From: Vulcanimicrobiota bacterium
GTDB lineage: Bacteria; Vulcanimicrobiota; Vulcanimicrobiia; Vulcanimicrobiales; Vulcanimicrobiaceae
Assembly: GCA_963778015.1 (NCBI GenBank)
Contig: CAVZST010000001.1
Span: forward strand, 917,190-981,189
DNA: 64,000 nt
Reading direction: 5' to 3'
Shown in pieces: positions 16,539 to 26,020 of the stretch. The translations under genes and the position numbers were made by a program. Under the pieces are notes generated by a model that searched no databases, was not told the DNA's origin, and saw only the letters and a program-made list of their open reading frames with translations. Each line of letters opens with the position of its first letter. Positions within the stretch are counted from its first letter, which is position 1.

Positions 16539-17054
16539 GTGGCCGAAACGATTCCTGAGGTGATCGCCCCCGCCTCGCTGGCCGACTACTTCGAGGTGAT
16601 GACGCGGGCCGTCTTCCAAGCGGGCGTGAGCTGGAAGCAAATAGCGCAGCAGTGGGACGCCTATCGCGAGGCGTTCTCAAATTTCGATCCGGCTCGCGTG
16701 GCCGCGTACGATGATCTAGATGTTGAGCGCATCCTTGCAACGCCCGGTATCCTTCGCATGCGGCGCAAAGTTCGAGCCGCGATCGCCGATGCAAAGGCGC
16801 TGCTCGAGGCGGATCGCGCACACGGCGGCTTCCAAAAGTATCTGCGCTCCTTTGAATCCTATGCCGCGCTGGCAAAGGATTTCAAGCGTCGCTTCGCCTT
16901 TATGGGCGACATGAACGTGTGGTACTTTCTCTTTCGCACGGGCGAAGAAGTTCCGCGCTTCGAAATTTGGGTCAAGACGATTCGGGGCCAGCATCCGAGG
17001 ATGCGCGAAATGGTCGAACGCGCGCGCCGCGAGGGCCGTTCACCAGAACGTTAG
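16539..17054 (+). CDS. tag: DNA-3-methyladenine glycosylase I-like protein
   Basis: YFEVMTRAVFQAGVSWKQIAQQWDAYREAFSNFDPARVA...ILRMRRKVRAAIADAK. Confidence 0.8.
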   Translation: MAETIPEVIAPASLADYFEVMTRAVFQAGVSWKQIAQQWDAYREAFSNFDPARVAAYDDLDVERILATPGILRMRRKVRAAIADAKALLEADRAHGGFQKYLRSFESYAALAKDFKRRFAFMGDMNVWYFLFRTGEEVPRFEIWVKTIRGQHPRMREMVERARREGRSPER

Positions 17055-20000
17055 GGCGACGGCGAAGGCCGGGGCTGCCTGGGACGGATGAGGTAGAGGC
17101 CGAGCTTTGGCGCGTAGTTGAGCTCGGGGATGAGCTTGCCGTCGAATCCGAGACGCGCAAGCTCGTCGGAGGTCGTTGCCGCGAGGCGCCCGCACATCAT
17201 CATCGCCGGAATGATCGTCGCATCTCCGGCCTCCAGCTCGTACCAGATGCCCCCTTTGGCCGAGTGCTGCGTAATGGTCCAGCTCGGCGCCGCTGTGCCG
17301 CTTGAGAAATGGCTCTTGAGTTCGTTGAGGGATTGCGTTGCGAGATTACGGACTTGGCCCGCGCACGACGTCGACGTCCGAATCTCGAATGGATCCTTCG
17401 GCGGCGTCGTCGGAAGCTTGTAGACGCGGAACATCTCTTGACCGGCCTGAGGTTGACGGGCCACGAAATAGAGTCCGACGGCCGGCATGAAGTTGAGCTG
17501 CGCCACGAAAAAGAGCGGGCTTGAGGGCGCGTAGAGCTTGCGCTGCGAGACGTCGCTGCTACGCGCGATATGTAGCGCCATGCAGCCGGCGAGTGCGCGA
17601 AGCATGCCAAAGCCTTTCGGCGTAATCGCCAACGCATACGTCGTGCCCAGCCCATGATAGGTGATCGTCGCATCGCTTAGCGACGGTGCCGGCATTGTCG
17701 CCGGGTAACCAGCTGCAGTTCGGGCCGCGTCGATTTGGGCAACGTAGGCTTTGACCTCAGCGGAGAGCTGACGCGCGTTGCCGGCATTCTCGGTGCTGCA
17801 GGTGGCCGGATTCGTCCCGACGACGAAAGGATCGGCCGGCGGCGTTTGCGGCAGGGGCGAGAAAAGCGATTGGAAACCCCGGCCGCCGCGAGGGCCGCCC
17901 GGCCCAGAGGGACCGCCCGGCCCACCGAGCGGACCGCCGTAGCCGCCACCCGGGCCACCCGGACCGCCTCCCGTGCCTCGGGCGTGAAATGCAGTCGCCG
18001 TCTGGGACGAAAGCGCGCCTTGGCCGAAGCGCGCGGAGTACGTCAGTGAATAGGTGCGCGGCATCAGCGGGCGCGCGATGTTGGCGATCGTGTACCCGCC
18101 GGCCGTAGTGTACGCAACGGCGTCGGCGGGGCTTGCGAAGACTCCGCCGTAGGCGTTGGTGATGTTCGCCGCCGCGAAGGTCAGCGTTCCGCGCGTCAGC
18201 TGGGCGGTTACGCCGGCGTCGTACGTGGTGTACGGCGGCAAGTCGTTGGGATTGTTCGCGCCGACGTGCTGCGCGTCGGCGAGCCACTCGAACATCGAGT
18301 TCGGCGCCTTGTAATCGAGCACGATCCCGGCCCTCTGCAACGGTACGTTGGGGAGTTGTTGACCTGGAATCGTGATCGACCAGGGGTTATCGAAGAGATA
18401 GATATTGGAGTCCGCTTGCGCGCCGGTGAGATTGTAGTACGGCTGGATCACGAGGTTCCCAACCGTCAGATATCCGGTGAGCTCCGCGCCTTGATAAAGC
18501 CGCCGCACGCCCGAGATCGGCGTCATAAAGTAGAGTTGCTGCGCCGCAAACGGCGTGTTCAGCGGCGTGTTGCAGCCAGCGGGGGAATTGTAAATCTGCG
18601 CGACCTGCTGCAGATATCCGGCAGGAATCTCGCCCATCTGGTTGAGCACGTACCCGTTGACGTAAACCGGCAGCAGGACGCCGTTTTGCACTTGGCGGTA
18701 AAGCGTGAGCGATACGTTGCCGCCTTTGAGCTGTCGCGTATAGCCGACACGAAGCGAATTCGACGAGCTGTTCTGCGGCTGCTCGCCCGGCGCGTTGCCA
18801 AAGGCAACCTTTCCAACGCAATCAAAGCGCAGCGACGCAGGATCGCTGAGGATCTGGAGCCTCCCCTGCGTCGCGGCGGCGCCCCCCAGCGCAAACGATG
18901 CGCTGTAGGCGTCGCGGCTCGTGGGACGCCAGGTCGCGCCGACGCTTGCAAGCTGGGAGATGCCGGCGTTGCCGGTCGCCGCGCTGAGGCCGGCTGAGCC
19001 GGACAACGTGAGCTTGTCGCTCGAGTGAATCGTGTCGCTTGCCTGCAGCACGTCGTATTGCGTTGATTGCGAGCCGATATAGAATTCCTCGGCTTGCGGG
19101 ATGAGCGGCGTCGTCGTGAACTGAGACGACGTTCCATAGGCTTGGAGTGAGATCGTGTGACGCTGCTGCGCCGGCAAGGTCGCGTTCACGACGTAACCGG
19201 TCGAGCGCGTGTCGCTCGAATAGCCCGTCGGCGACGGGGCGCCGTTCACATAGCGCGCCAGCTCGTCCAAGAGGCCGCTCGAGTCGAGGGAGAAGACCGA
19301 AGCCTGAAGCTGGGTCGCGCCGATCAGCGCATTGTCAGACAACGAGTAGAGCTGCACGTTGCTGCTATTGGTATTGTTCGGCCCGTATCCGCAGGGAAGC
19401 GTCGTTTGCGGATCGCCGTCGTACCGCAGACAGACGATGTTGGTGTCTCGCGTCGAGTTCATGAACATGCCGCTCAGCGAGTTGTTGTCGCCGAACTCGT
19501 AGCGCGTGGAGAGGACGTTGCCCGAGATGGTGCTATCTCCGTCGTGGACGTAGTCCAGGCCACTGGCGTCCTCGTAGAGATCGCCGTCGATTAAGCTCGG
19601 ATACAGGCGATTGACCGTCTGCACCGCCAAGCCGAGCTTGCCGACCGACCCCGTCTCCGCAAGCGAGTAATTGTAGCGGCCGTAGGTGCCGGTGGAGATC
19701 TGCAGCTGCGTTATCCAGCTCAACGTGGGCTGCAGCGTGCTGAAGTTCACCGATCCGCCCAATCCGCCCAGCGTTGCTCCCATGTGCACGGATGCGCCCT
19801 GGAAGAGATCGGTCGCAAACGCGCCGAGATTTCCCGTCGATCCCGGCGCATTGAGGGGGATTCCGTCGAGCGTGAGCTGCGTCTGCGAGGGATCGTGACC
19901 CTCGAGCGAGATCGTTTGCGTCGCATCGCTATCGTCGCTGGAAGTAGAAACGGTCACGCCCGAGAGCTTATTGAGCGCGTCGGCCAAATCAGTCGAGAGC

Positions 20001-20428
20001 CGTCGTTGTGGCGAGTTTTGATCGATGCTGGTAGAGGAGATCGTCGCCGACGCCTTAGCGGTCACTTCGCCGATGACTTTCAAACCGCCGTTCTCCAATG
20101 CCAACGCAAAACTCACGGTCACGATCCGGCCGTCGAGGACCTCGAACGAATCTGACGTCAAGCTCGTGTAGCCGCGCCGCACGATGCGGGCGCGGTAAAT
20201 ACCGTCGGGAACATCGGTAAAAACGACCTTTCCGTTCTTACCGGTAAGCTCGGACGTGATAACCGGCCCGTCGAGAAGAACGCGAGCGAGTTCGAGCGGC
20301 TGCTTGGTCGACGCGTCGATGACGACGATATCGATTTCTCCGGAATCGGACTGGGCAGCCGCATTGGGCATTAAGCCGGCCATTAGCAGAAGCAGCGAAA
20401 CTGTCGCCGCAGTGCTCCGTCTGAGCAT
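17051..20428 (-). CDS. TonB-dependent-receptor-like outer-membrane protein with a 324-aa C-terminal extension (CarboxypepD_reg domain + plug + barrel)
   Basis: Signal MLRRSTAATVSLLLLMAGLMPNAAAQ. CarboxypepD_reg-like IDIVVID...GIYRARIVRRGY. Plug LADALNKLSGVTV...ISLEGHDPSQTQLTLDGIPL. Barrel-terminal ...RTYSLTYSARF is followed by a G/P linker and two repeats. Confidence 0.85.
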   Translation of the reverse strand: MLRRSTAATVSLLLLMAGLMPNAAAQSDSGEIDIVVIDASTKQPLELARVLLDGPVITSELTGKNGKVVFTDVPDGIYRARIVRRGYTSLTSDSFEVLDGRIVTVSFALALENGGLKVIGEVTAKASATISSTSIDQNSPQRRLSTDLADALNKLSGVTVSTSSDDSDATQTISLEGHDPSQTQLTLDGIPLNAPGSTGNLGAFATDLFQGASVHMGATLGGLGGSVNFSTLQPTLSWITQLQISTGTYGRYNYSLAETGSVGKLGLAVQTVNRLYPSLIDGDLYEDASGLDYVHDGDSTISGNVLSTRYEFGDNNSLSGMFMNSTRDTNIVCLRYDGDPQTTLPCGYGPNNTNSSNVQLYSLSDNALIGATQLQASVFSLDSSGLLDELARYVNGAPSPTGYSSDTRSTGYVVNATLPAQQRHTISLQAYGTSSQFTTTPLIPQAEEFYIGSQSTQYDVLQASDTIHSSDKLTLSGSAGLSAATGNAGISQLASVGATWRPTSRDAYSASFALGGAAATQGRLQILSDPASLRFDCVGKVAFGNAPGEQPQNSSSNSLRVGYTRQLKGGNVSLTLYRQVQNGVLLPVYVNGYVLNQMGEIPAGYLQQVAQIYNSPAGCNTPLNTPFAAQQLYFMTPISGVRRLYQGAELTGYLTVGNLVIQPYYNLTGAQADSNIYLFDNPWSITIPGQQLPNVPLQRAGIVLDYKAPNSMFEWLADAQHVGANNPNDLPPYTTYDAGVTAQLTRGTLTFAAANITNAYGGVFASPADAVAYTTAGGYTIANIARPLMPRTYSLTYSARFGQGALSSQTATAFHARGTGGGPGGPGGGYGGPLGGPGGPSGPGGPRGGRGFQSLFSPLPQTPPADPFVVGTNPATCSTENAGNARQLSAEVKAYVAQIDAARTAAGYPATMPAPSLSDATITYHGLGTTYALAITPKGFGMLRALAGCMALHIARSSDVSQRKLYAPSSPLFFVAQLNFMPAVGLYFVARQPQAGQEMFRVYKLPTTPPKDPFEIRTSTSCAGQVRNLATQSLNELKSHFSSGTAAPSWTITQHSAKGGIWYELEAGDATIIPAMMMCGRLAATTSDELARLGFDGKLIPELNYAPKLGLYLIRPRQPRPSPSP

Positions 20429-20437
20429 GTTGACACG

Positions 20438-20443
20438 ATTATA
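20438..20443 (-). promoter_or_regulatory. perfect TATAAT -10 hexamer 9 nt upstream of the receptor-like gene ATG (possible near-leaderless promoter)
   Basis: Minus strand reads ...GTTTCATATAATCGTGTCAAC-ATG. No Shine-Dalgarno lies between the hexamer and the ATG at 20428. Confidence 0.3.
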
Positions 20444-20485
20444 TGAAACGTCCGCTGAGGGCGCCTGAAGTTGCCCTGTGAACGG

Positions 20486-21931
20486 CTAGATTGTGATCGT
20501 GACCGCGGTGCCGTGCCCTGGGGCGCTGTCGATGGCGATGTCTCCGCCGGCCCGTTCGACCGCGCGCTTGGCAATCGCCAAGCCCAGCCCCGTTCCCACA
20601 ATTTCGCCGCGTTGATCACCACGGTAGAATCGTTCGAAGGCATGAAGTCGCTCGGACTCCGACATGCCGGGACCCTCGTCCCGAACCCTGATGATCGCAT
20701 GACCGTTGGTTCGAGCCGCGCTCAAATGAATCGGCGCGTCGGGCGCATATTTTAAAGCATTCTCAATGACATTCCAGACTGCCTCGGCCAGTTCACCGCG
20801 ATCGGCTTCGATCGTTTTCAGCCCGTCCACGCTGTAATCAATCGTCCGGCGATCGTCGAGTCGCCGGGCGGCTTCACATTGACTGCGCAAAAGGTCCGCG
20901 ACGTCGACGTGCTCGATGTGCGGCGGCGCTTCGGAGTCGAGCCGCGCCAAGCGCATCAGCCGGTCGATCAATCCGCGCATGTGCTCTTTCTCGAGCGACA
21001 TCGTCGCGAGGATCTGACGGGCAATCCGCGGCTCCTCGATCGCACCGCGGCGCAGCACGTCGATATATCCGGCGATCACCGTAAGCGGAGTACGCAGCTC
21101 GTGCGAGGCGTCGGCCGCAAACTGGCGCATGCGTTCCTCGGCCTGACGGCGGTGATCGATCGCCGTCGCGACGCTGGCAACGGCGTCGTTGAAGGCTCCG
21201 GTAAGGGATGCAACTTCGTCGCCGCCCGCCATGACGAAACGGCGCTGCGTATAATCGCCGTCGGCCAAGGCCCGCAACGAATCGCTCACCTCATTGATCG
21301 GCCGCAACGACTGTTGCGCGAACAGGCGCCCGACGAACCAGGAAAGCAAAATCGCTGCCAATGCGATCGTGAGCACGATCCGCCAATACGGGAGCAATGA
21401 CACGAGCAAAAGTGGGAATGAAGGACCGAAGCCAACGTATCCGCCTTCCACATAGGTAAGTGAAAGTGGTTCGAGGCGCGTAGGATCGGGTGGGAGCGGC
21501 GTCAGCGGCCCGTGATATGTATAGAGCCGCAACGCCGGGCGTGCAAAGCGATCGGTCGTACCTTGTGGCCCACGCAGCGCGGGCGGAATGAAGTGTTGCA
21601 TTCCGCCGGCTGCTAAAACTCCGGCGAGCGATTTGGGCCGCAGCGTCTTGTCACCGGCGAGATAATGACCTTTCAAGTCGTAGATGGTCACCCGTAGGCC
21701 GATCCCGCTCAATGCGTTGACGATTTCCGGTGCCGCCTTTGCGAGCGTCATCCCTTCGCGCCGGTACTGATCTACGAGGATTCGCGCCTCTTCGTGCTTG
21801 GCAACCATCACGTCGCCGGAAAACTGCCACAATTCGAAGACCAGGGCAATCGAAGAAGCGAGGATGACGATCAGGACCGTCACGCCAAGCAGCACCGCAT
21901 ACAGAGCGGAGAGGCGCGCTGCCAGCTTCAC
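20486..21931 (-). CDS. sensor histidine kinase (TM-HAMP-HisKA-HATPase_c)
   Basis: H-box FAADASHELRTPLTVI. N/G boxes NVIENALKYAP, DEGPGM and GTGLGLAIAK. GTG start. Confidence 0.9.
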   Translation of the reverse strand: MKLAARLSALYAVLLGVTVLIVILASSIALVFELWQFSGDVMVAKHEEARILVDQYRREGMTLAKAAPEIVNALSGIGLRVTIYDLKGHYLAGDKTLRPKSLAGVLAAGGMQHFIPPALRGPQGTTDRFARPALRLYTYHGPLTPLPPDPTRLEPLSLTYVEGGYVGFGPSFPLLLVSLLPYWRIVLTIALAAILLSWFVGRLFAQQSLRPINEVSDSLRALADGDYTQRRFVMAGGDEVASLTGAFNDAVASVATAIDHRRQAEERMRQFAADASHELRTPLTVIAGYIDVLRRGAIEEPRIARQILATMSLEKEHMRGLIDRLMRLARLDSEAPPHIEHVDVADLLRSQCEAARRLDDRRTIDYSVDGLKTIEADRGELAEAVWNVIENALKYAPDAPIHLSAARTNGHAIIRVRDEGPGMSESERLHAFERFYRGDQRGEIVGTGLGLAIAKRAVERAGGDIAIDSAPGHGTAVTITI

Positions 21932-21946
21932 TGTTTGAGCGCGATC

Positions 21947-22633
21947 CTATTGAGAAAGGCCGTAGCCGACGCCGCGGACCGTTCGAATGAACGAGCCGGG
22001 TTCGCCGGGACGATCCACCTTCCCGCGAAGATACGATATGTAGGTTTCGACGATGTTCGGGCCGCCCTCAAAGTCGTGTCCCCAGACGATTTCCAGGAGA
22101 TGATCCTTGCTGAAGACGCGGCGAGGTTCCCGCATGAACACTTCCAGCAGGTCGAATTCGCGCTGCGTGAACTCTAGCGGTTCCTTTCCCCGCCAGGCCT
22201 CGCGGGTGGCGGGGTTGATCGAGATGTCGCGCCAACGCAGCACGTTCTCTTCGATGAGCTGCGGCCGCCGAAGCTTCGCCTGAAGGCGGGCGATTAGCTC
22301 TTCGAAGACAAACGGCTTGACGAGATAGTCGTCGGCACCGGAGCTCAATGAACGGACCTTGTCCTCAGTGCCCCCCTTTGCAGTAAGCATGAGGATGGGC
22401 GCTTGCGTGATCTCCCGCAGGCGCGGCAGCAGCGTCACCCCGTCGATCTTTGGCATCATAATGTCGAGAACGATGAGCTCCGGATCGAAGATCTTGACGA
22501 GCTCGAGCGCAGCCAGCCCGTCCATTGCGGTCCGCACCTCGTAGCCTTCGCGGGAGAGTCCAAGTTCCAACATCTCCCGGACCATGCGATCGTCGTCGAT
22601 GACCGCAACGCGGGCATTGGGCATTGTATGCAT
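21947..22633 (-). CDS. OmpR-family response regulator
   Basis: ATG at 22633 (or 22624) gives M(HTM)PNARVAVIDDDRMVREML...LDIMMPKIDG...winged helix ...YIRTVRGVGY. The 86 aa upstream in the ORF are not protein-like. Confidence 0.9.
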   Translation of the reverse strand: MHTMPNARVAVIDDDRMVREMLELGLSREGYEVRTAMDGLAALELVKIFDPELIVLDIMMPKIDGVTLLPRLREITQAPILMLTAKGGTEDKVRSLSSGADDYLVKPFVFEELIARLQAKLRRPQLIEENVLRWRDISINPATREAWRGKEPLEFTQREFDLLEVFMREPRRVFSKDHLLEIVWGHDFEGGPNIVETYISYLRGKVDRPGEPGSFIRTVRGVGYGLSQ

Positions 22634-22703
22634 TTCTACGCTGCATCGTGCGTTCTCACCCTTGGAGCTACCTGAACCCGCTCGCCCGGCTGACGATGAC
22701 CAG

Positions 22704-23159
22704 CTACGCAGCCCGGTCTGGGGAATGCCACCGCTGGAGGCGCTGACCCGAAACGAGCGCTGCCCTGCCGATGGCCGCGAGAGGATGCGCAACGACCCGG
22801 ATGCCCCGCTGGGCCAGAAGAGCGCTGGTCGATTCGTCGGGCAGCCAATGCGCGAAGATATGGACCTCATGCGTTTCGGTCGCCTCAGCAAGCCTCACAA
22901 TGACGTCGTCAAGCGTGCATTCGCCCTGGGCGAGAAGCTTGCTCACGATCTCGGCTCGAAACCGCGATGCGCTCCAGCCCGCGGCCACTATGAGGATGCG
23001 CGAGACCTCGTCAACGCGCGTTGCTTCGAAATCGACCAGGGCTGCCTCGATGCAGCAAGCTAGGCCAGGCTCAGTCTGCGCGTGGAGAGTTGCTCCGGCG
23101 ATGGAAGCCGCCGGCCCCGCCGTCAGGAGCGCCCCGGCCCCGATAAAGTACTCGTCCAT
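22704..23159 (-). CDS. hypothetical protein
   Basis: ATG at 23159 (MDEYFIGAGALL...). This frame has the highest third-position GC of the three overlapping ORFs. No family recognised. Confidence 0.45.
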   Translation of the reverse strand: MDEYFIGAGALLTAGPAASIAGATLHAQTEPGLACCIEAALVDFEATRVDEVSRILIVAAGWSASRFRAEIVSKLLAQGECTLDDVIVRLAEATETHEVHIFAHWLPDESTSALLAQRGIRVVAHPLAAIGRAALVSGQRLQRWHSPDRAA

Positions 23160-23395: not shown

Positions 23396-26020
23396 TCATA
23401 TTAATCCCATGCGTCGAGCGGCGCGTAGTGCTTCCGAGTGCCCATGGCAGCCGAGTTTTGCGATGACGTTGGCGATATGCACCCTCACGGTGTGCACACT
23501 CCGACCGCTCCGTGCTGCAATCTCTTTTGGAACCAAACCTTCCGCCAAAAGCACCATAATGTCGCGCTCTGACGCGGTCAGGCTGCCACCACCAAAGCTT
23601 TCTTCGCCATAACGCAGTACGCGGTCGACGGCTCCCAAAAGTCTTGCCACGTCGGCGTAGCCAAGCGCAGTGAGGCCTTCAACACTTTCTCTTATTCGAT
23701 CTAGGCCACTTTCGCCGCGATGACGCAGTCGCAACAGTAAACTGTCTGCCGCCTTTACAAGAAGCACAATAACCGCATCGCTGTCTGTTTTTACGCTCAT
23801 CAACACACGGTCCGCATAAAGCGTGCGACCGTTTATCGCCTCGGCGATTGCGCAGAGCGTCTTCGCAATCTCCATCGAGCGGACCCGAAAGAGGCCAGTA
23901 ACCTGGGAGGAGGCTCGTAAACCTAGGATTTCTTTCACCACATGCGCCGCTGGCTGAAGACGTCCGTCGAGCGCTAAAAAGAGCGCGTATTGACTACCAC
24001 ACACGATTCGATCGAAATTAAACGGCAGCTGCGCCCAGCATGGAGCAACCAACTGATGGGCTTCGGCAAACCGGCCTTCCCAAGCGAGGCGAAGAGATCG
24101 GAAGAGCGTAAGGTATCTGATCGCCAAATCGCTTTTCCTCGTGCTCTCCAATCTCTGCTCGATTTCAATGCTTTTTTCTAAGTCACCTCGACGCATCTGC
24201 GCACTAAGCATTTGTAATAGCGCGGTTTGAAGCGCGAACGCATCGCCAGCCCTCGTGGCTGATTTTGCCGCAAGTTCTGCATACTGCAGTTGCCGGTCGA
24301 CATCGTCTTCTTCGTGGAGGGATAGGTTGGACAAAACGGCATTTGCGCGACTTACAATACTGTACAAGTGAAGCTCCGCTGCAAGCTCGCTTGACTGCGT
24401 AAGCACTTCAAATGCTCTACCGGCAACGCCAAGGTGATGAAAGGCAATGCCCATGTGATGTAACGCTTTCGCACGCACCGAGTCGGAATCGACTTCAGTC
24501 ATGAGTGCCTCAACCAAGGCGAGTGCTTTACGCGCTGTCACCGGATCCCCAGCAACGGCTCGCTGACCTGCGATCAGGGAGAGCGCTTCCGCACGATGGC
24601 CCGTACTTTGCTCTTCATCTTCACCGACCGCATTCAGCAGCTCCCCCACGTCTTCGCCCTGGTTTGCCATCAATGACGCGAGGCGAAGAGCTGCCGTTGC
24701 CTTCAAATCGCGGTCGTTTCCAGATCGCGCCAGTGCACGACGAAAGAGGGATTCCGCTCTGGCGAATTTACCTGCTACTGCGTGAAGCGCGCCTTGCAGC
24801 GCTAGAACGGTAGGATTCTCGCGGCGGGTTTTTTCGTCGAGCGCTTCAATGGCGTGCGCCACGACGTCGCCGTGAGCGCGTTCCAAAAGATCGAAACCGT
24901 GGGCCTCGAGCAAACGTAGCACGTCCGCCGGCGATGCCGCCGCAGCGTAGGACGCAATTGCATGCTCGATGTCGCCGCTTGCTTCGAGGGCGCGGGCGGC
25001 GCGCTCGTGCACGAGCTGTTGGGCGCGCTTACCGCCAAGCGCAGCCTCGCGTCGGAGGAACTCACGAAAAAGGTCGTGGCATTGATAAATGCCCGGCGAT
25101 TCCTCGTAAATGAATGCCGTCCGCTCGCGCAGTCGCTCTACAATGGGGAGCGCGCGATCGAATCCGGCCCGTTGGAGCACGGTTATGTCAATGAGCGGCA
25201 GCGCAACGGCGACTTCGAGCAAGCTGCGCTCGTCGTCATCCAGAGCAGCGTAAACCTGCTCCGCGAGAAGTCTGTAGATCATCTCTCTGGTGAGTGCTGC
25301 GACGTTGCGCAACTCCGATGAGCGCGTCGAGGTGTGCAGAGCAAAGCTCATCGCCGCGGGCCAGCCTTCAGTCAACTCCAACAGATCGGCAAGCTCTTCG
25401 TCGCTTACTTTAAGCCGTAAGCCATCGGCGCCTTCGCGCGCTTCGTCCAAAGTGAACCGAAGGTCGTGTTCGTCGATAGGAAGATCAGCGTCGCGATAAG
25501 CGAGCCAGGTCCCCACGGGAAGACCCGCCGTCGTGCGTGAGGCGAGGATCCAGCGGATCCTTCCCTTCGCTCGCTCGACCAGAGAAGTCAGGAATTCCGT
25601 AACTTCGGGATCATCGTCGACTACGTGAAGATCATCAATGGCCACGATGCCCCGGAACGATTCCAGGTGCGCATCCATCCAACGAGCGAGATCGCGTGCC
25701 CGCTTTGGAGAAGAGGCATTGCGCTCATAAGCGTTCGGTAGCGCTGTGGTCGCGTGCGGCGCGTGTTCACGCAGCGCCTCCGTTAAGCCGCGAAGAAAGC
25801 CGAGAAGGCTCGCGTGCTCCGCGCGCACCGGGAACCGAACGCTCGGTTCGACGAGCGAGCCGAGATATTGACGAAGTACGACCGACTTACCATATCCAGC
25901 GGGAGCGATCAAGAGCGCGATTGGATACTTTGCGGCGGCGGCCAATCGCCCGAGAAGGCGCGGTCGCTCGATCGATGCAGACGCATCGCTGCGATCTTCG
26001 TTTGGCAGCGCGCGGATCAT
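23396..26020 (-). CDS. MalT/LAL-type large ATP-binding LuxR-family regulator (STAND NTPase + TPR-like + HTH_LuxR)
   Basis: Walker A LLIAPAGYGKSVV. Long helical repeat region. C-terminal LTASERDIMVLLAEGLVPKEIAARSGRSVHTVRVHIANVIAKLG. Confidence 0.9.
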   Translation of the reverse strand: MIRALPNEDRSDASASIERPRLLGRLAAAAKYPIALLIAPAGYGKSVVLRQYLGSLVEPSVRFPVRAEHASLLGFLRGLTEALREHAPHATTALPNAYERNASSPKRARDLARWMDAHLESFRGIVAIDDLHVVDDDPEVTEFLTSLVERAKGRIRWILASRTTAGLPVGTWLAYRDADLPIDEHDLRFTLDEAREGADGLRLKVSDEELADLLELTEGWPAAMSFALHTSTRSSELRNVAALTREMIYRLLAEQVYAALDDDERSLLEVAVALPLIDITVLQRAGFDRALPIVERLRERTAFIYEESPGIYQCHDLFREFLRREAALGGKRAQQLVHERAARALEASGDIEHAIASYAAAASPADVLRLLEAHGFDLLERAHGDVVAHAIEALDEKTRRENPTVLALQGALHAVAGKFARAESLFRRALARSGNDRDLKATAALRLASLMANQGEDVGELLNAVGEDEEQSTGHRAEALSLIAGQRAVAGDPVTARKALALVEALMTEVDSDSVRAKALHHMGIAFHHLGVAGRAFEVLTQSSELAAELHLYSIVSRANAVLSNLSLHEEDDVDRQLQYAELAAKSATRAGDAFALQTALLQMLSAQMRRGDLEKSIEIEQRLESTRKSDLAIRYLTLFRSLRLAWEGRFAEAHQLVAPCWAQLPFNFDRIVCGSQYALFLALDGRLQPAAHVVKEILGLRASSQVTGLFRVRSMEIAKTLCAIAEAINGRTLYADRVLMSVKTDSDAVIVLLVKAADSLLLRLRHRGESGLDRIRESVEGLTALGYADVARLLGAVDRVLRYGEESFGGGSLTASERDIMVLLAEGLVPKEIAARSGRSVHTVRVHIANVIAKLGCHGHSEALRAARRMGLI

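Follow-up and report, generated by a model that had tools for sequence, protein, structure and literature searches.

A transporter-like outer-membrane protein of a soil bacterium of the Vulcanimicrobiota (Eremiobacterota) continues for 324 residues beyond the predicted end of its β-barrel, and this extension is a genuine part of the protein. The gene lies in the 64,000-nucleotide stretch analysed here, hereafter the window (contig CAVZST010000001.1 of assembly GCA_963778015.1, forward-strand positions 917,190 to 981,189), as a single uninterrupted open reading frame (ORF) of 1125 residues at window positions 17051–20428 on the minus strand. Few machines of the outer membrane have been studied as well as the TonB-dependent transporters (TBDTs), and their textbook members end at a barrel-terminal aromatic residue that acts as the insertion signal for BAM, the machinery by which β-barrels are assembled. 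In the window protein, the last barrel residue, F801, is followed by a disordered linker of about 50 residues and then by two tandem α/β domains of about 130 residues each, together called the module below. The module lies C-terminal to a TBDT-like protein in every full-length family member and in every locus checked, demonstrating that the fusion is real.

An earlier note, made from the sequence alone, had described the barrel end, the linker and the repeats, and translation of its own coordinates reproduced each of these elements. The motif RTYSLTYSARF, which it placed at the end of the barrel, occupies residues 791–801, and the Gly/Pro linker at nucleotides 17876–17977 translates to GTGGGPGGPGGGYGGPLGGPGGPSGPGGPRGGRG. 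The two tandem repeats, at 17447–17845 and 17066–17407, start with TPPADPF and TPPKDPF, respectively, and each contains two Cys residues, C877/C949 and C1022/C1079. The features of the gene and its product are listed below, with low values of the predicted local distance difference test score (pLDDT) marking disordered parts.

17051–20428, minus strand: complete gene for a TBDT-like outer-membrane protein with a C-terminal extension (ORF list; more than 115 full-length homologs)
20354–20428, minus strand: predicted signal peptide, residues 1–25, MLRRSTAATVSLLLLMAGLMPNAAA and then Q (read from the sequence; model helix at residues 2–19)
20102–20326, minus strand: CarboxypepD_reg-like N-terminal extension, residues 35–109 (PF13620)
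20054–20086, minus strand: TonB-box-like motif GLKVIGEVTAK, residues 115–125, between the N-terminal extension and the plug (conservation among 78 orthologs)
19781–20053, minus strand: plug domain, residues 126–216 (PF07715)
18026–19723, minus strand: β-barrel, about residues 236–801 (low-confidence model, Foldseek, PF00593 in homologs)
19430–19432, 19391–19393, 18818–18820 and 18572–18574, minus strand: codons of the barrel Cys residues C333, C346, C537 and C619
18026–18058, minus strand: last barrel strand and putative internal β-signal RTYSLTYSARF, residues 791–801 (translation)
17978–18025, minus strand: short conserved post-barrel segment GQGALSSQTATAFHAR, residues 802–817 (conservation in the ortholog group)
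17876–17977, minus strand: Gly/Pro-rich disordered linker, residues 818–851 (translation; low pLDDT)
17447–17875, minus strand: repeat 1 of the α/β domain, residues 852–994, with Cys877 and Cys949 (module model)
17084–17446, minus strand: repeat 2 of the same α/β domain, residues 995–1115, with Cys1022 and Cys1079 (hhalign; module model)
17054–17083, minus strand: Pro/Ser-rich C-terminal tail PRQPRPSPSP (pLDDT drops to about 50)

The transporter portion and the end of the barrel

We classify the first approximately 800 residues as an Oar-type TBDT, an architecture defined previously (PMC6434023), on the basis of the Pfam domains, the Foldseek matches of the model, a TonB-box-like motif and the match at the barrel end. 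The N-terminus has the make-up of a Sec signal peptide, with a basic n-region, a hydrophobic core and a predicted cleavage site between AAA and Q. The earlier note had called a CarboxypepD_reg domain and a plug, and Pfam places them at residues 35–109 and 126–216. The PF13620 match (30.3 bits, E 5.4e-7) falls slightly below the 32.3-bit cut-off in the window protein; the domain was nevertheless detected in all nine of the diverse family members searched (27.9–39.4 bits), seven of which reach the cut-off and most of which also carry the plug. Judged across the family, the protein thus appears to possess the CarboxypepD_reg extension of Oar-type transporters despite its own sub-cut-off score. 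The PF07715 match is well above its cut-off (38.6 versus 23.9 bits, E 1.6e-9). The motif GLKVIGxVTAK occupies the expected place of a TonB box, after the N-terminal extension and before the plug, and may represent one, given its resemblance to boxes of the xxVVVTA type. Five of its residues, L116, K117, I119, G120 and V122, never vary among 78 orthologs, and conservation reaches 90% or more at G115, V118, T123, A124 and K125.

The full-length AlphaFold model is of low confidence (pLDDT 53, predicted template modelling score (pTM) 0.36), and we used it for the strand count and for family assignment by Foldseek, leaving module–barrel contacts aside. It contains about 22 long strands between residues 239 and 798, and all of its top 50 Foldseek matches in the PDB are TBDTs, including FrpB, FepA, PirA and BtuB (best E 3.4e-10). 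At the family level, a 22-strand barrel is therefore the predicted fold, with the count itself taken from this low-confidence model.

The barrel domain PF00593 is recognized in homologs of the window protein, with a cut-off of 27 bits: P0026 (27.0 bits) and P0063 (31.4 bits), which are 79–80% identical to it, and the more distant ortholog P0186 (44.3 bits). These alignments run to the final profile position, 436 of 436, at about residues 750–756. The profile end maps to an ANITNAY motif in the window protein, after which one further hairpin follows, ending in PRTYSLTYSARF. Such an ending, NLxDxxY and then R-x9-F, is usual at the C-terminus of a TBDT. In the orthologs of the window protein the last strand reads PRTYSxTYS(A/V)(R/K)F, and in distant paralogs PRxxxxxYxxxxG. 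RTYSLTYSARF also fits the β-signal consensus, which ends in hydrophobic-x-aromatic (PMC10945584). The last strand predicted in the full-length model spans residues 791–798, and residues 799–852 have no structure. Taken together, the homolog alignments and the final hairpin support a barrel that ends at F801, in agreement with the earlier placement of the barrel end at TYSARF. We also considered a barrel that continues through residues 802–1125, and rejected it; the region models as an unstructured linker and α/β globular domains, not as barrel strands.

In the order of its parts, namely signal peptide, PF13620, TonB-box-like motif, PF07715 and PF00593-type barrel, the protein resembles Myxococcus xanthus Oar and Bacteroides SusC (PMC6434023), and like theirs its barrel closes with a hydrophobic-x-Phe strand. 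Two differences stand out. The barrel of the window protein is so divergent that it misses the PF00593 threshold, and while known members stop at the barrel-terminal aromatic residue, the window protein has about 324 further residues. F801 is not terminal because the protein carries the module after the barrel, and the true C-terminus reads RPSPSP.

Four extra Cys residues in the barrel, C333, C346, C537 and C619, are invariant in the 78 orthologs. They probably form two loop disulfides, as in other TBDTs.

The linker and the tandem module

Residues 802–817 follow the pattern GQGxxSSQTATAFxxRG, whose conservation is confined to the ortholog group, and are modelled without secondary structure at pLDDT below 50. 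The following linker, residues 818–851, also has pLDDT below 50 and varies among the orthologs in both length and sequence, while its two flanks are conserved. In the ortholog group the linker measures 40–70 residues and contains 46% Gly plus Pro, as compared with 18–56 residues (median about 32) and 24% in the wider family. By sequence composition, a strongly Gly/Pro-rich linker is thus a trait of the ortholog group of the window protein and not of the wider family. In the paralogs, part of the linker stretch seems to be the short strand that, in the module model, packs on the module. At the other end, the C-terminal tail varies in length and is SPSP-like in most orthologs.

Modelled alone as a 274-residue sequence with 102 aligned sequences, the module folds as a domain pair with a mean pLDDT of 91.7 and a pTM of 0.78, the outcome of the structure prediction that the earlier note had proposed for the post-barrel region. 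Both repeats show the same order of elements: a long helix, a β-hairpin, a helix, a strand, a short helix and a second β-hairpin. In repeat 1, these are helix 28–50, hairpin 69–86, helix 89–98, strand 101–104, helix 106–111 and hairpin 127–138, in module-model numbering. Each repeat has one Cys two residues ahead of the long helix and the other at the final position of the second helix. The four Cys residues are invariant in 22 modules that are only 22–32% identical to each other, and each domain probably has a single disulfide that locks it.

The two repeats are 26% identical by BLASTP (E 2e-7), and an hhalign comparison of repeat profiles built from 84 family members gives a probability of 99.4% and an E of 2e-21 over 116 columns. 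At the level of sequence, this similarity, far beyond chance, shows that the two domains are homologous and arose by duplication. The motifs PP.DPF, C.PE, F.P.VG.Y, W.EL and LNYAP..GLY recur across 85 representatives. Nei–Gojobori ratios of non-synonymous to synonymous substitution rates (dN/dS) against close orthologs are about 0.07–0.15 for repeat 1, 0.17–0.39 for repeat 2 and 0.09–0.18 for the barrel, values that are rough because dS is about 1 and synonymous sites are near saturation. Even so read, the codon comparison clearly points to purifying selection on both repeats, with repeat 1 constrained like the barrel. The charge of the module is not conserved: the median isoelectric point (pI) is 8.9 in the ortholog group and 6.6 in the paralogs, in which it ranges from 5.0 to 10.5.

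The earlier note had left the identity of the last 324 residues open, and Pfam and NCBIfam indeed gave no match there. A Pfam search of 22 diverse modules returned nothing recurrent, and no OmpA_C (PF00691), SLH or LysM domain. Module profiles searched against PDB sequences gave either nothing or one chance match at E 0.82, and the full-length profile gave no match. Foldseek searches of the module model against the PDB and BFVD found no match at E≤0.001. As measured against Pfam, NCBIfam, the PDB and BFVD, the module is therefore a new domain with no detectable relative outside its own family.

The best Foldseek match in the PDB, 4d40_A, has a type IV pilin fold, and was rejected as insignificant (E 0.76, probability 0.63, 59 columns). 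Pilin and pseudopilin heads share with the module a long helix packed on an antiparallel sheet, but the Cys pair of the module is placed differently, and no hydrophobic helix of the N-terminal pilin type precedes either repeat.

Distribution of the family and authenticity of the fusion

More than 115 full-length homologs of 1097–1147 residues and 65–86% identity were retrieved from JGI, ENA, NCBI and Logan assemblies, and all of them show the barrel end, the variable linker and the conserved module. A scan of GTDB species representatives gave 151 pattern-matching stretches, 126 of which encode a relative, and the best 80 loci were fetched. Every fetched locus that contains upstream DNA has the barrel immediately before the module, in most cases in frame with it. 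As to TBDTs lacking the module, the fetched loci contain no other transporter genes. A hidden Markov model search of 1.84 billion cluster representatives yielded 225 clusters, defined at 50% identity, with E≤0.001, and 184 with E≤1e-10; nearly all full-length members have 1004–1138 residues and carry the module at the extreme C-terminus. The homolog survey suggested earlier thus finds the same fusion in more than 115 orthologs and approximately 225 clusters.

We also searched for the module as a stand-alone protein, as the earlier note had recommended. A module-only query returned short proteins only, all of which proved on inspection to be contig-end truncations or out-of-frame pieces, leaving no genuine stand-alone module among the approximately 225 clusters. 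Since the short copies are fragments of a longer gene, assembly errors split the transporter gene and do not create the fusion. The artefactual join near 18.0 kb that the earlier note had raised against itself is excluded by the recurrence of the continuous ORF in more than 115 independent assemblies.

The chance that a frameshift, a chimeric join or a barrel simply running on accounts for the extension is negligible: although the linker DNA is of low complexity with about 72% G+C, and long-read assemblies do frameshift the gene, the errors observed split it instead of fusing two, the intact 1097–1147-residue ORF occurs in short-read and long-read assemblies from many samples, true stand-alone modules are lacking, and the post-barrel region models as α/β domains.

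The frameshifts, which also affect the adjoining kinase gene, occur in long-read metagenome-assembled genomes (MAGs; MFD series, ENA) at L001 3491–6807, L009, L015, L017, L050, L067, L070 and L071. From such sequences gene callers predict false stand-alone modules, P0134 and P0135 among them, whose first residue is an artificial M in LPQTPP. In L001 the broken gene is split into three pieces of 439, 420 and 268 residues, of which P0134 is the third.

All family members with a named organism belong to Eremiobacterota/Vulcanimicrobiota, under the names Candidatus Cybelea, Baltobacteraceae, Eremiobacteraeota, Tumulicola, Aquilonibacter and Eremiobacteraceae. Two MAGs titled Candidatus Acidoferrum sp. 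and Candidatus Acidiferrales (L011, L075) contain the same transporter with the full synteny of response regulator, histidine kinase, transporter and Tag described below, which suggests that they are mislabelled or contaminated bins.

Probable location and possible function of the module

Both termini of a TBDT barrel face the periplasm. Given this topology, the lack of any strand predicted after F801, and the confinement of the conserved post-barrel segment to the ortholog group, the module is probably periplasmic, and its invariant Cys pairs are compatible with an oxidising compartment. On the evidence of genomes and of electron microscopy of cultured Vulcanimicrobium alpinum, Eremiobacterota are diderm and have a lipopolysaccharide-containing outer membrane (PMC6664022, PMC9758169), so that a periplasm and a BAM pathway are expected. 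The β-signal would be retained and work as an internal signal in the last strand, as in OmpA or the ushers, a precedent that makes a new insertion mechanism unnecessary. The module would then hang in the periplasm, at a distance from the barrel rim that in the paralogs would be a few nanometres at most. The short paralog linkers, part of which appears to pack on the module, suggest that it generally stays near the periplasmic rim and not at the inner membrane.

A conserved TBDT architecture trailed by a disordered linker and a disulfide-stabilised domain pair with a periplasmic docking role is, in our opinion, the best explanation of the whole, although we give it slightly less than an even chance. 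As for function taken separately, periplasmic docking is the most likely assignment, if still a tentative one drawn from analogy: the tethered module may dock a partner or a transported cargo beneath the barrel, specific to each paralog. The variable charge of the module, the divergence of its sequences on a fixed scaffold and the short linkers speak for a partner or cargo particular to each paralog, and against a generic anchor to the wall or to a polyanion. Such a partner or cargo is also favoured by the genomic settings of the module-bearing paralogs, which sit in unrelated contexts without a two-component system nearby, several of them adjoining genes for secreted peptides.

The closest parallel in layout is found in the ushers FimD and PapC, in which a large plugged barrel with an internal β-signal is followed by two small globular C-terminal domains that lie in the periplasm and handle cargo there. 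The parallel is no more than an analogy; the proteins are unrelated in sequence and fold. Usher C-terminal domains are β-sandwiches behind a 24-stranded barrel, whereas the window module is α/β, with one Cys pair per domain and a long disordered linker; Pfam found neither the usher barrel PF00577 nor PapC-type C-terminal domains in the window protein.

Several points weigh against this explanation. The docking function is an analogy and not a result, and the analysis identified neither a binding partner nor a ligand site or catalytic motif for the module. Its predicted place in the periplasm comes from barrel topology. Pfam gave no PF00593 match in the window protein at E≤1, and the poor full-length model leaves the strand count and any module–barrel contact uncertain. 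The novelty of the fold holds relative to the PDB and BFVD, and the paralog neighbourhoods are few (n=11) and heterogeneous.

Within these neighbourhoods, one paralog subfamily is recognizable by a PGYLxxxWP motif ahead of the module, and at four of four loci its transporter genes are located within or next to sets of secreted-peptide genes. Two of them, L082 4137–13237 and L090 221–7112, contain genes for SdpC (1–4 copies), SdpA, HTTM (SdpB-like) and DCC1-like proteins, and beside both paralogs stands a conserved signal-peptide protein with 43% identity between the two loci. L086 357–9303 contains a B12-radical-SAM and lanthipeptide-dehydratase operon, and L089 49–7854 an HTTM gene with JmjC and 2-oxoglutarate-oxygenase genes. 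At L090 and L086 the neighbouring genes abut or overlap the transporter gene in an operon-like manner.

Directly upstream of two other paralogs we observed small Cys-containing ORFs with signal-peptide-like N-termini, of 64 residues (L092 7736–7930) and 90 residues (L088 948–1220). They may encode peptide precursors or cargo.

A tether between the outer membrane and the cell wall, which would anchor an abundant transporter to peptidoglycan or another wall polymer in the manner of OmpA, or of OmpM with the domain order reversed, is unlikely but deserves consideration. A barrel, a linker and a periplasmic module make up the classic tether layout of OmpA, and the likeness extends to the Pro-rich flexible hinge, the globular domain and a β-signal away from the polypeptide end. 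The wall is within reach of the linker, the ortholog-group module is basic (median pI 8.9), and its presence on many paralogs whatever their genomic context suggests a generic role. However, we detected no OmpA_C, SLH, LysM or other wall-binding family and no Foldseek match to such folds, the pI varies widely among the paralogs, and divergence of the modules to 22–32% identity is unexpected for a common ligand. The barrel, a 22-strand plugged transporter by prediction, also sets the window protein apart from these tethers. OmpM is described as a tether plus channel (PMC10628300).

Periplasmic docking can be taken one step further. The module might serve as the cargo or partner receptor of an Eremiobacterota-specific class of TBDTs, for example outer-membrane exporters of peptide toxins and of ribosomally synthesized and post-translationally modified peptides (RiPPs). 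We consider this extension doubtful; it draws on the peptide-cluster association of the one subfamily and on an earlier example, the secretion of PopC by way of Oar (PMC6434023), which is the only case known. If true, it would generalise PopC secretion, and in the ortholog group of the window protein it would mean that a core transporter is coupled to the adjacent two-component system.

That two-component system raises another alternative, namely that the module contacts the periplasmic sensor of the co-encoded kinase and reports the occupancy of the transporter, as a C-terminal counterpart of the FecA-type STN domain. The order of response regulator, kinase and transporter is kept in 68 loci, including the distant ortholog L083, with only 57 nucleotides between kinase and transporter in the window; the kinase has a periplasmic region of about 170 residues without an assigned domain, and the linker of the ortholog group is unusually long. 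Like FecA and FpvA, the window protein is a TBDT with an extra tethered periplasmic domain encoded beside a regulatory system, but here the extra domain lies at the C-terminus, occurs in duplicate and is no relative of STN (PF07660), which Pfam did not find in the protein, and the adjacent genes encode an OmpR-type regulator and a histidine kinase instead of an extracytoplasmic function (ECF) sigma/anti-sigma pair. Moreover, the module also occurs on paralogs that lack a nearby two-component system, kinase sensor and module show no similarity, and since the transporter appears to have its own conserved promoter, with conserved blocks upstream, ordinary transcriptional control would explain the synteny. 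We regard this signalling role as improbable.

A surface-exposed module, which would get outside by an extra strand or through the barrel and act as a SusD-like lid or binding domain fused to the transporter, or in the manner of an inverse-autotransporter passenger, is very improbable indeed. Conserved disulfide-type Cys pairs would also suit an extracellular location and a flexible Gly-rich linker could in principle thread the pore, yet the last hairpin and the β-signal are canonical and intact, no further strand is predicted, the conserved post-barrel segment is missing from the paralogs, and the plug fills the lumen of a TBDT.

Our literature searches on C-terminal extensions of TBDTs and on TonB systems of Eremiobacterota found no description of this architecture. 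A census of 34,893 TBDTs tallied N-terminal architectures only and leaves C-terminal domains unmentioned (PMC6434023). The earlier view that a post-barrel module is atypical for a TBDT is in keeping with this survey and with the empty Pfam, NCBIfam and PDB searches. The architecture suggests that TBDT barrels can be assembled with an internal β-signal and a large trailing passenger, and that an unexplored function on the periplasmic side is attached to the module-bearing transporters. It points to a distinctive envelope biology in Eremiobacterota, a globally abundant and barely cultured soil phylum, and it defines a new domain for Pfam-type curation. The peptide-cluster link of one paralog subfamily could bear on the spread of TBDT-mediated secretion. 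The cultured Vulcanimicrobium alpinum may offer an experimental route at the level of the phylum.

Genomic context and putative promoter

The features upstream of the transporter gene are as follows.

20429–20485, minus strand: promoter-like intergenic region with blocks TCnCAG, T..AGG and TATAATC (25-sequence alignment)
20486–21931, minus strand: sensor histidine kinase with HAMP, HisKA and HATPase domains, the next gene upstream on this strand (Pfam)
21947–22639, minus strand: response regulator of the OmpR/PhoB family, with M85 of the listed ORF as its likely start (Pfam Response_reg and Trans_reg_C)

The order MalT-like regulator, response regulator, kinase, transporter and Tag is kept in the 68 loci and is seen at the distant ortholog L083; the MalT-like gene keeps its place in 57 loci. 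The response regulator is 80–100% identical across 63 loci; the kinase is only 60–92% identical, and the transporter is also less conserved.

In the kinase–transporter spacer, the blocks TCnCAG, T..AGG and TATAATC are invariant in the alignment of 25 sequences, against a mean column identity of 57%. TATAAT lies at 20438–20443 in the window, 9 nucleotides before the ATG. Across ortholog loci, TAnAAT starts 10–20 nucleotides upstream of the start codon in 26 of 29 cases, and the spacers place a −10-like box 7–12 nucleotides before the ATG. The spacer (20429–20485) contains no Shine–Dalgarno sequence and no terminator, and its features are the same in L002–L065. These sequence features suggest that the transporter gene is transcribed from a promoter of its own, which probably depends on the regulator, into an mRNA with no leader or hardly any. 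The adjacent two-component system therefore probably controls the transcription of the transporter through this conserved promoter, rather than being the partner of the module.

Residues of about 91–121 of the kinase hold TYHG and LTPLPPDP, which resemble TYHG and LPTTPPKDP of the module. Alignment of the kinase periplasmic region with the module is insignificant (E 0.3–1.7), and the likeness is probably due to chance in Pro-rich sequence.

The listed response-regulator ORF, 21947–22891 on the minus strand, begins with TTG and has an 84-residue Arg/Ser-rich N-terminal extension before a receiver domain that starts at residue 95. The true start is likely M85, at window position 22639. Upstream of the two-component system, at 23396–26020 on the minus strand, lies the gene for an 874-residue MalT-like STAND ATPase/LuxR-type regulator, 32–82% identical across the 57 loci. 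At the opposite end, the stop codon of the transporter (17051–17053, minus strand) and that of the convergent Tag glycosylase gene (17052–17054, plus strand) overlap within TTAG, so that a terminator would have no space between them.

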